Source: Escherichia coli
Lineage (GTDB): Bacteria; Pseudomonadota; Gammaproteobacteria; Enterobacterales; Enterobacteriaceae
Length of the DNA: 64,000 bases
Strand: one strand, 5' to 3'
Assembly: GCF_003334405.1 (NCBI RefSeq)
Contig: NZ_QOWM01000005.1
Shown: one piece after another, positions 61,834-63,498 of the stretch
Position numbering within the stretch: position 1 is the first letter of the stretch
Layout: each line of letters starts with the position of its first letter
Notes under the pieces: generated by a model
Seen by the model: the letters and a program-made list of their open reading frames with translations, nothing else
Told to the model about the DNA's origin: nothing
The model's database searches: none
Translations under genes and position numbers: made by a program

Positions 61834-62127
61834 TTTCAAATGTAGAGATTATTTTATCGATATATCATGGGGTTATGTTATTCAGCATCACTATTCAGGA
61901 GGCTCAATAGCGGGGTACTATACCATAACAACAGGAAGCGCCTGTCTCATTGCAAAAGAAAATTGAGATCCTCTCAAGGCATGAAGCTCTCACGAAGTGA
62001 TGGAAATAATCTTATTAGCCGTTAACTTTGTTAAGGCCAATGATAAACAATCCAGGTTCGACGATAAATAAAAAATCACACATTAAACTCTGGTGATATA
62101 TCTCCCTGCTAATAGCATTGATAGAGA

Positions 62128-62160
62128 AAAAAGAACCCAATAAATATTGGGTCCTTTTAT
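62128..62160. terminator. Hairpin with flanking A/T runs downstream of yjbM (bidirectional terminator-like)
   Basis: aaaaaagaacccaataaatattgggtccttttat read directly; 7-bp stem acccaat/attgggt. Confidence 0.55.
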
Positions 62161-62195
62161 ATAATGCCTTCCATACTATCGAAGAACTTCACATA

Positions 62196-62903
62196 TTATT
62201 TCTCCGATTTAACCCCGAACAAATCATAAATTAATTTAGAAGTGTCTGTAAGTATTTTAATCTCTTCCTTTGAGGTTGGGTCAAACGACTTCGCGAAGCT
62301 AATTAATTGTGGTGCAGCATCTCGCATTTTGCTTAAAATATCAGGATCGAGCGTTCCTTCATTCACCAGATGTGACATCTTATCCAGATAGCCATCAAAA
62401 TTCATTTCTCCCCCATCAGCCAGACGCTTCATCTCTCCCAGGTACTTCTTCATATCACGTTGAGATAATTTTTCAAACTGAGCTTTCAGGTAGCTCTCAT
62501 TATTTTCATTAATATACACTGTTTCTGATAAATCTGCGTAGGCACTAGAATATGAAAGTGAAATTAACAGCGAAGCAAATAATTTTAAGCTGTTGTCATC
62601 ATGTTCCTGGCAGGCATTAACAAACGTTAAAAAACCAGAACCTATTGCTTGAAAATGTATATTCGCTAAAGGTTCATTATCCTTAGATTCCTCATAAAAT
62701 AGCTGAACCGTGGAGGGAAGGTCATTCTTAGTTTCTACATCAAAAGTACATTGTTCAATGGGCATTGCATCTTTATTATCCCCAGGATTACATATACTAT
62801 TAATCGCGAAATGAAAAATAGCCCGGTCAACAACTGATGCAATAAAGTCACGATCGTTTAAATCCTCATCAGTGCAATCGTCAATATACTTATTGACCCA
62901 CAT
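62196..62903 (-). CDS. yjbM: Uncharacterised protein YjbM
   Basis: ORF 62196..62936 trimmed to ATG 62903 (MWVNKYIDDCTDEDLNDRDF...), 235 aa; AT-rich codon usage; no recognisable domain by eye. Confidence 0.8.
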   Translation of the reverse strand: MWVNKYIDDCTDEDLNDRDFIASVVDRAIFHFAINSICNPGDNKDAMPIEQCTFDVETKNDLPSTVQLFYEESKDNEPLANIHFQAIGSGFLTFVNACQEHDDNSLKLFASLLISLSYSSAYADLSETVYINENNESYLKAQFEKLSQRDMKKYLGEMKRLADGGEMNFDGYLDKMSHLVNEGTLDPDILSKMRDAAPQLISFAKSFDPTSKEEIKILTDTSKLIYDLFGVKSEK

Positions 62904-62926
62904 TTTGAGATCATTTATTTGCACAA

Positions 62927-63181
62927 TTAAAAACACATTTTTTTACGTGCATGCCATAAATTATGCGTGATTCGTTGAATAAACAAATCTATTTTTGCAA
63001 TAATTATATCCCGATGACGCAGCGCTGCATAATCAATAGATTTACCATATATATTATTTAATTTACCTTTGATTGAACCTCTATTATCTAATTTATCTTT
63101 GATTGCATCTTCATTATCGAATTGATTTGAATTGAGTGTTTTATTAAAGTATCCAGTTGCACCGGGTATTATCTTCAACAT
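62927..63181 (-). CDS. yjbL: Uncharacterised small protein YjbL
   Basis: 84-aa [34 protein letters not shown]...; 3' end overlaps or abuts yjbM start; AT-rich. Confidence 0.75.
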
Positions 63182-63498
63182 GATTCATCTACCTTTTTTG
63201 TCGTACCGTGTCCTCCTTATAATTCTTTTGCCATCTGGTCACTATCAAAAATCGCTCATAATTTCTGAACTACAGGTATGCGTTTAAACCCAGTTAAATA
63301 AATAGCGAGTTAACTTGAAGCAATTTATTTAAAAATGAATTATTAATTATTATCGTGTTGATAATGGTACGACAAGGCAACATAACACCTTACCTACAAA
63401 ACAGAAAATCAACATTACGGCAACAATAAGGGTTCTCGGTGTTTTTCCTGGAACATGGTAAAGTAAGGACATTCTTAACCCCCACTTTGAGGTGCCCG

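Follow-up and report, generated by a model that had tools for sequence, protein, structure and literature searches.

The yjbL-yjbM locus was analyzed in a stretch of 64,000 nucleotides of Escherichia coli DNA (assembly GCF_003334405.1, contig NZ_QOWM01000005.1), the whole of which is referred to here as the window. In it, the two open reading frames (ORFs) are flanked by dusA and zur. Comparison with other E. coli genomes led us to read yjbL and yjbM as a single gene of approximately 328 aa, of which they are the N-terminal and the C-terminal part, respectively. On this reading the gene, a member of the DUF2713 family restricted to E. coli/Shigella, was broken when a run of eight A lost one of them (A8 to A7). 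We assign a probability of about 0.9 to this reading. The copy carried by this strain would be a young, essentially non-functional pseudogene.

An earlier note, written from the sequence of the window, had described the locus as two tightly linked genes in an AT-rich islet, with the general layout of acquired accessory modules such as toxin-antitoxin (TA) or defence-like ones, although it saw nothing in the sequence that demonstrates this. Its description of the DNA was largely borne out, and its interpretation as two genes was not.

A single gene split by one missing A

The ORF list of the window contains both minus-strand ORFs of the earlier note (84 and 235 codons; Table 1), and a 2.5-kb query from the window matched E. 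coli K-12 MG1655 at 100% identity. The region is AT-rich, as had been claimed: the GC content of ~61750-63550 is 31-40%, compared with 51-58% for the dusA and zur flanks. The hairpin terminator proposed 3' of the second ORF was recovered as an intrinsic terminator, its stem at 62158-62129 being followed by a T-run. The claim of tight linkage stands in part: when yjbM is started from its GTG codon it overlaps the yjbL stop by 10 nt, and when it is started from its ATG codon the start is located 23 nt 3' of that stop, but the overlap itself is a by-product of a 1-bp deletion (see below). No Shine-Dalgarno (SD) motif was found by sequence reading 5' of either candidate yjbM start.

The same interval is occupied in other E. 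coli by one continuous ORF of 318-340 aa, annotated as 'DUF2713 family protein'. Four comparison strains were taken across the identity range, and each of them was found to carry a single intact gene: MINF_2E (338 codons), O157:H7 Xuzhou21 (318 codons), K_EC180 (318 codons) and 98203 (334 codons). A single ORF was also found in strains SA53-3, 52F4 and RM8352. The earlier note had named a failure of the two genes to co-occur in other genomes as evidence against its reading; this is what was observed, in the sense that elsewhere there is one gene. For MG1655, the RefSeq Prokaryotic Genome Annotation Pipeline (PGAP) annotates the locus as one coding sequence (CDS), 'DUF2713 domain-containing protein', flagged as 'frameshifted' (pseudogene).

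The DNA alignment contained a sole frame-breaking difference, one missing A at alignment column 389. The coding strand of the window reads CGT-AAAAAAA-TGTG (A7, 62938-62944), and that of the intact MINF_2E gene reads CGT-AAAAAAAA-TGTG. From the tract on, the upstream frame reads K-K-M-C-F-stop and ends at 62927; the last 5' stop of the downstream frame is located at 62945-62943, and this frame is open thereafter. The yjbL/yjbM 'overlap' is therefore the stretch between the stops of the two frames, produced by the 1-bp deletion that lies between them. Insertion of one A generated an uninterrupted ORF of 328 aa, which showed 96% identity to an intact protein cluster (P0008) of 2,579 member sequences. 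The full-length architecture of the family, one polypeptide of 318-340 aa with a conserved N-terminus followed by DUF2713, is absent from the window copy and was restored by this single base.

Unsplit alleles that are nearly identical to the window copy were identified. The intact gene of the O121 strain RM8352 differs by 2 nt from the 986-nt gene of the window, the extra A and a T/A single nucleotide polymorphism (SNP) at 62923. The intact gene of strain 52F4 is the window gene, that is the K-12 gene, with that single A added; this haplotype occurs in only 2 genomes, and a homopolymer assembly error is possible there. Conservation is unbroken across the junction between the two halves, even in alleles that are ~50% identical, and the strongest conserved block of the entire family (17 residues) lies in the 'YjbL' part. 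Pairwise ratios of nonsynonymous to synonymous substitution rates (dN/dS) were ~0.4-0.65 in both parts for most allele pairs, the closest pairs having too few differences to inform. These values indicate that both parts are coding.

The apparent two-gene structure can be explained as follows. With one A lost from the A8 run, the upstream frame stops five codons further on, giving the 84-aa 'YjbL', and the downstream frame, open from just before the lesion, gives 'YjbM', hence the apparent overlap. A K-12-type copy would yield at most traces of the full-length protein, through -1 slippage on A7, or a C-terminal fragment, through re-initiation. We conclude that the lesion is an ordinary slipped-strand deletion. 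Systematic misassembly as the origin of the A7 run in K-12-type genomes is very unlikely, given that the run was found in 1,889 genomes. The split nature of the gene is already on record in PGAP; it is absent from the names yjbL and yjbM, from the Pfam model and from the papers that refer to a 'yjbL-yjbM operon'.

Table 1. Features of the dusA-zur interval in the window; the islet is the segment at which homology to strain Nissle 1917 is interrupted.
Feature	Position	Strand	Basis or remark
Frameshifted single DUF2713-family gene, 328 aa once one A is added	62196..63181	-	PGAP, repaired ORF and near-identical intact alleles
Frameshift site, A7 run on the coding strand	62938..62944	-	DNA alignment, sequence reading, haplotype strings and counts
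N-terminal fragment ORF 'yjbL', 84 aa	62927..63181	-	Last 3 residues (MCF) are out-of-frame read-through
C-terminal fragment ORF 'yjbM', 235 aa (ATG 62903) or 246 aa (GTG 62936)	62196..62936	-	Equals Pfam DUF2713
In-frame 30-nt tandem repeat, 10-aa K/D/L/N-rich unit, 2 copies	63052..63111	-	Repeat search and allele alignments
Intrinsic terminator, 3' of the second ORF	62121..62158	-	13-pair stem 62158-62129, 4-nt loop, then T-run
AT-rich 5' region, promoter side of the islet, shared divergently with zur	63182..63431		GC profile; PMC3661553 Table 1
Element-type dusA 5' end, codons 1 to ~29	61746..61836	-	Likeness to the dusA-5' mimic of dusA-integrating phages
Whole variable islet, 1,686 bp	61746..63431		blastn boundaries against Nissle 1917

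The DUF2713 family and its alleles

The earlier note recognized no domain in either product. YjbM corresponds end to end to the uncharacterized Pfam family PF10897 (DUF2713), residues 1-235 matching positions 1-235 of the 235-position model (E = 1.7e-167). PF10897 matched all 11 alleles tested, covering only residues 84-318 of the intact protein: the model begins at the ATG of K-12 YjbM and leaves out the N-terminal ~83-103 residues, which are conserved and are encoded by 'yjbL'. The N-terminal boundary of DUF2713 in Pfam is an artefact inherited from the K-12 frameshift. The intact homologues found at the same locus are the full-length members of PF10897 and of the RefSeq 'DUF2713 family protein', whereas the window copy is split.

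The calculated isoelectric points (pI) were 9.8 for YjbL and 4.5 for YjbM, the latter in agreement with the acidic character noted before. The intact protein has a pI of 5.1 and a top 19-residue Kyte-Doolittle average (KD19) of 1.39, without a transmembrane segment, and is predicted to be soluble and acidic. Its N-terminus is polar and rich in Ser, Thr and Asn, which, with the lack of the islet in Nissle (B2), brought an ETT2/T3SS effector to mind; shared phylogeny would confound any such co-occurrence. The AlphaFold2 (AF2) model of the intact protein had an overall predicted local distance difference test (pLDDT) score of 62.5. It comprises residues 1-64, which are of low confidence and contain a variable 10-aa repeat, helices, a three-stranded sheet (154-189) and a C-terminal helical bundle with pLDDT 80-92. 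Judging from this model, residues 1-64 are probably disordered. Neither a fold relative nor an informative structural neighbour of the model was found.

Three word-seeded HMMER searches, including one with a profile of divergent alleles, yielded no homologue outside E. coli/Shigella, and the sole DUF2713 entry assigned to 'Klebsiella' was a 1-kb partial contig. The most conserved motifs of the family gave no match in two scans of 100,044 species-representative genomes. No match was obtained in PDB sequences or in Pfam other than DUF2713, and the search of Rfam gave nothing above the gathering scores. In the sequence collections searched, the family appears to be confined to E. coli/Shigella. 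The literature search found DUF2713 in no paper, and yjbL/yjbM only as list entries. The assignment of YjbL to a response-regulator family (PMC12871917) was not reproduced, no such match being obtained in Pfam or NCBIfam searches of YjbL.

Carriage by plasmids or phages was considered and rejected. DUF2713 was not found on true plasmids: the 7 matches obtained were chromosomes or chromosome fragments filed as plasmids. Two PHROGs families had suggested a phage origin, phrog_29005 matching full-length YjbM and phrog_28007 matching YjbL residues 1-40, but the DUF2713 gene was not found by tblastn in 50,697 phage records. The probable source of both families is prophage predictions that extended past the dusA attachment (att) site into chromosomal DNA. 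As a separate observation, the 'phages' collection was found to hold 0.5-Mb Salmonella chromosomal contigs (AGRM01000005 and AFYI01000007) and the 'plasmids' collection to hold whole E. coli chromosomes. Such misfiled entries, used here as outgroup, can give false 'phage' or 'plasmid' matches.

The frequency of the locus and of the lesion was determined in 5,426 complete E. coli genomes. Of these, 4,214 contained at least 80% of the 2.5-kb region, and 1,123 (21%) had the empty site found in strain Nissle 1917; the survey of presence and absence across the species that the earlier note had proposed thus identifies the locus as accessory. The exact 79/80-nt haplotypes around the tract fell into four classes according to tract length and to the SNP at 62923. 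The class of the window (T, A7) was found in 868 genomes and (A, A7) in 1,021; the unsplit classes were found in 68 genomes (A, A8) and 2 genomes (T, A8). The A7 lesion is therefore present in ~1,889 of the 5,426 genomes (35%), and a 101-nt query gave 1,884. A7 genomes that were sampled are flagged as frameshifted by PGAP. The remaining genomes have other alleles, of which four were read and all four were intact.

A different, independent frameshift was found in the DUF2713 gene of strain 503025. Independent inactivation by insertion sequences was also observed: in strain J6, IS1 interrupts the DUF2713 gene within its poly(A) run, between CACGTAAAA and GGTGATGCTGCC, and strain LZYWN_4 has an IS1A insertion in the same region. 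The number of copies of the in-frame 30-nt repeat varies, with one copy in O157, K_EC180 and 98203, two in K-12 and three in MINF_2E.

Sequence divergence among the allele classes is confined to the CDS. Both flanks are 92-100% identical, non-coding parts of the islet included, and the 5' region (63182..63431) is 92-97% conserved. Within the CDS, nucleotide identity is 55-78% and protein identity ~50%, with synonymous divergence (dS) between allele classes of up to 0.8-1.0; the indels among alleles are in frame. Ancient balanced alleles or import from donors could both account for divergence restricted to the CDS.

The dusA attachment site and the acquisition of the islet

In the blastn comparison with Nissle 1917, homology stops at 61745/61746 and resumes at 63432, leaving 1,686 bp in between. 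Nissle carries 133 bp in place of the islet, which have no similarity to it beyond that of shuffled controls. The left break is inside dusA, at ~codon 29, and lies ~15-20 bp from the point at which dusA prophages recombine (~61727-61730). Phages mEp460, 1720a-02, SKA5, PhiR40_1 and others contain a dusA mimic of ~107 nt, with 82-84% nucleotide identity to the dusA 5' end of K-12, and the homology of this mimic ends at the same ~61727-61730. In strain 7_33_46A, dusA is split by a 36-kb lambdoid prophage that carries nleG7 and whose tyrosine integrase adjoins dusA. This prophage supplies a dusA 5' end (MHDNHETLKINQTSVMPEKTGVYWNSRFSI...) that shows homology to the one of K-12 itself. That of Nissle (MPAESHTVYPAYRFSI...) resembles the one of Salmonella Infantis (MQPETQSSAFPAYRFSI...) and is taken as the native type. 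The arrangement of the dusA 5' end fits what Farrugia et al. 2015 (PMC4482086) reported on how dusA-associated integrases behave.

It was also observed that strain 7_33_46A retains a 105-nt fragment of the original dusA 5' end beside a DUF2713 pseudogene, the dusA 5' end being an active prophage attachment site.

The islet resembles the dusA-associated islands and prophages (PMC4482086) in two features, a left boundary located in the dusA 5' end, near the recombination point of the att site, and a replacement dusA 5' end of the kind supplied by an element. It differs from them in its content: no tyrosine integrase ORF of dusA-associated islands was found in 61746-63431, no imperfect direct repeats (attL/attR) pair its two ends, and other element genes are missing, only 1.7 kb being left. 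The islet is at most a degraded remnant of a dusA-associated element. The K-12-type arrangement would then be the dusA-proximal remnant of an ancient element integrated in dusA, and the Nissle/B2 arrangement would be native. The DUF2713 gene may have arrived as cargo of such an element, an integrative one that targets dusA and whose dusA-proximal end alone would have survived; the single observation that suggests this role as cargo is that the gene is contiguous with a dusA 5' end of the element type.

The zur/yjbL intergenic region has been described as a 526-bp 'promoter island', bound by H-NS in all the chromatin immunoprecipitation-microarray (ChIP-chip) sets used and located beside predicted foreign genes (PMC3661553). 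The gene would then be silenced by H-NS. The left edge near the dusA att site, the phage-type dusA 5' end and the H-NS-bound zur/yjbL region support the acquisition of the islet; together with the empty site in 1,123 of the 5,426 genomes, they agree with what the earlier note had suggested, an acquired, accessory islet.

Across enterics, the zur-dusA slot varies and has received insertions repeatedly. In Salmonella it is occupied by STM4242, a gene for a predicted outer-membrane protein; S. houtenae has in the slot, besides this gene, a foreign gene for a zinc dehydrogenase, annotated with an Acinetobacter plasmid gene as its best match, and a dusA 5' end of the element type.

Alternative readings and significance

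A genuine bicistronic module of the TA or defence type would consist of a basic YjbL (pI 9.8) and an acidic YjbM (pI 4.5), made separately through translational coupling and acting together. The 10-nt overlap of the yjbM GTG start with the yjbL stop, the opposite charges of the products, the AT-rich, acquired locus and the presence of both intact ORFs in ~35% of genomes agree with such a module. This likeness to type II TA modules, which extends to a small ORF overlapping the larger one that follows it, is superficial. No pair of distinct genes is conserved across genomes, a single ORF being present in all seven strains named above; the split and the overlap are due to a single missing A, with an unsplit allele only 2 nt away; neither yjbM start candidate is preceded by an SD motif; and neither the halves nor three intact alleles matched any toxin, antitoxin or defence model in Pfam, NCBIfam or PADLOC-DB v2 (0 defence families in the latter). 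The layout that had brought TA and defence systems to mind is that of two fragments of one gene, whose conservation crosses the junction, and a bicistronic module is highly improbable. The opposite extreme, in which the ORFs are spurious and the AT-rich DNA contains no gene, would be in line with the AT-richness and H-NS binding of the region, the weak SD and the lack of homologues outside E. coli. It is effectively refuted by the conservation of an ORF of 318-340 codons in classes that are ~50% identical, with dN/dS of 0.4-0.5; in addition, the indels are in frame and the AF2 model is partly confident (C-terminal pLDDT 80-92).

Two further readings accept a single gene and give the tract a function. 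If the A7 allele produced the full-length protein through programmed -1 frameshifting or transcriptional slippage, the 'pseudogene' would be functional. The shift needed is indeed -1, on AAA AAA Lys codons, which are slippery in E. coli (dnaX-type and poly(A) slippage), and the A7 allele is common without further decay. However, the features of a dnaX-type programmed -1 frameshift, a heptamer with stimulators, are missing at the A7 site: the heptamer in frame, U AAA AAA, does not have the form X XXY YYZ, nothing resembling an SD is located upstream of the tract, and the 78 nt that follow are predicted to fold no more stably than shuffled sequences (z = -0.75). A run of seven A gives only low slippage. 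Moreover, the A run is not kept in other allele classes, which read, in frame, GAAAAAAA (O157), ATCAAAAA (K_EC180) and GATAATAA (98203), and the intact alleles are simply A8. Recoding is quite improbable on this evidence. The tract could instead be, together with the 30-nt repeat as a variable number tandem repeat (VNTR), the reversible on/off switch of a phase-variable contingency locus. A homopolymer within a CDS that is hypervariable between conserved flanks, the variable copy number of the repeat, and the existence of all four combinations of tract length and SNP, 15 nt apart, which implies at least two changes in tract length, agree with such a switch. As in homopolymer-frameshifted pseudogenes and contingency genes, the two versions differ by one base in a poly(A) tract of the CDS and are otherwise nearly identical. 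On the other hand, the (T, A8) class consists of just 2 genomes, which may be homopolymer assembly errors, and without them the three remaining haplotypes need one slippage event; 93% of the exact-matching genomes in this allele family are 'off', a distribution that resembles a clone more than a switch. The tract is short (A8), and in E. coli with proficient mismatch repair tracts of this length mutate only mildly; ~1,890 genomes have inherited the off state, and reversibility, backed by 2 genomes, is unproven. Phase variation is decidedly unlikely.

Several points weigh against the reading of the locus as the broken copy of a single, acquired gene. Both fragment ORFs are open and otherwise undamaged in ~1,890 genomes, which could mean that a function was kept, as two polypeptides or by slippage; this is equally expected if the lesion is very recent. 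The inertness of the K-12 copy is read from its sequence. Known phages share the ~107-nt dusA mimic with the islet and not the rest of it. The proposed role of the intact protein, discussed next, has no direct support, the AF2 model being mediocre and without an informative structural neighbour.

Divergence confined to the CDS, presence and absence among strains, an in-frame VNTR and repeated inactivation form the pattern expected of a gene that is dispensable and subject to diversifying or fluctuating selection. From the CDS-only divergence and the recurrent inactivation, our best guess, made with low confidence, is that the intact gene encodes a dispensable accessory factor under such selection, for example in conflict with phage, competitors or host. 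A more specific version, in which DUF2713 is an E. coli-restricted hypervariable conflict gene, either a single-protein anti-phage or abortive-infection system or a secreted or host-interaction factor, whose allele classes are kept by balancing or diversifying selection and which poly(A) slippage, other frameshifts and IS1 insertion have turned off time and again, is unlikely as a whole. If it were true, K-12 would simply carry an 'off' copy.

The present results correct the record on yjbL and yjbM, which are treated as two genes in Pfam and in the literature, where they are listed as a young two-gene operon (PMC12218254). When K-12 is screened for small overlapping modules, for TA systems or for young operons, this locus will come up as a false positive, and the phenotypes of knock-out or over-expression of the separate halves are to be read as those of gene fragments. 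The DUF2713 gene is a reasonable, although unproven, candidate for diversifying selection, and in its intact form it represents a clean case of a taxonomically restricted orphan located beside a phage attachment site.

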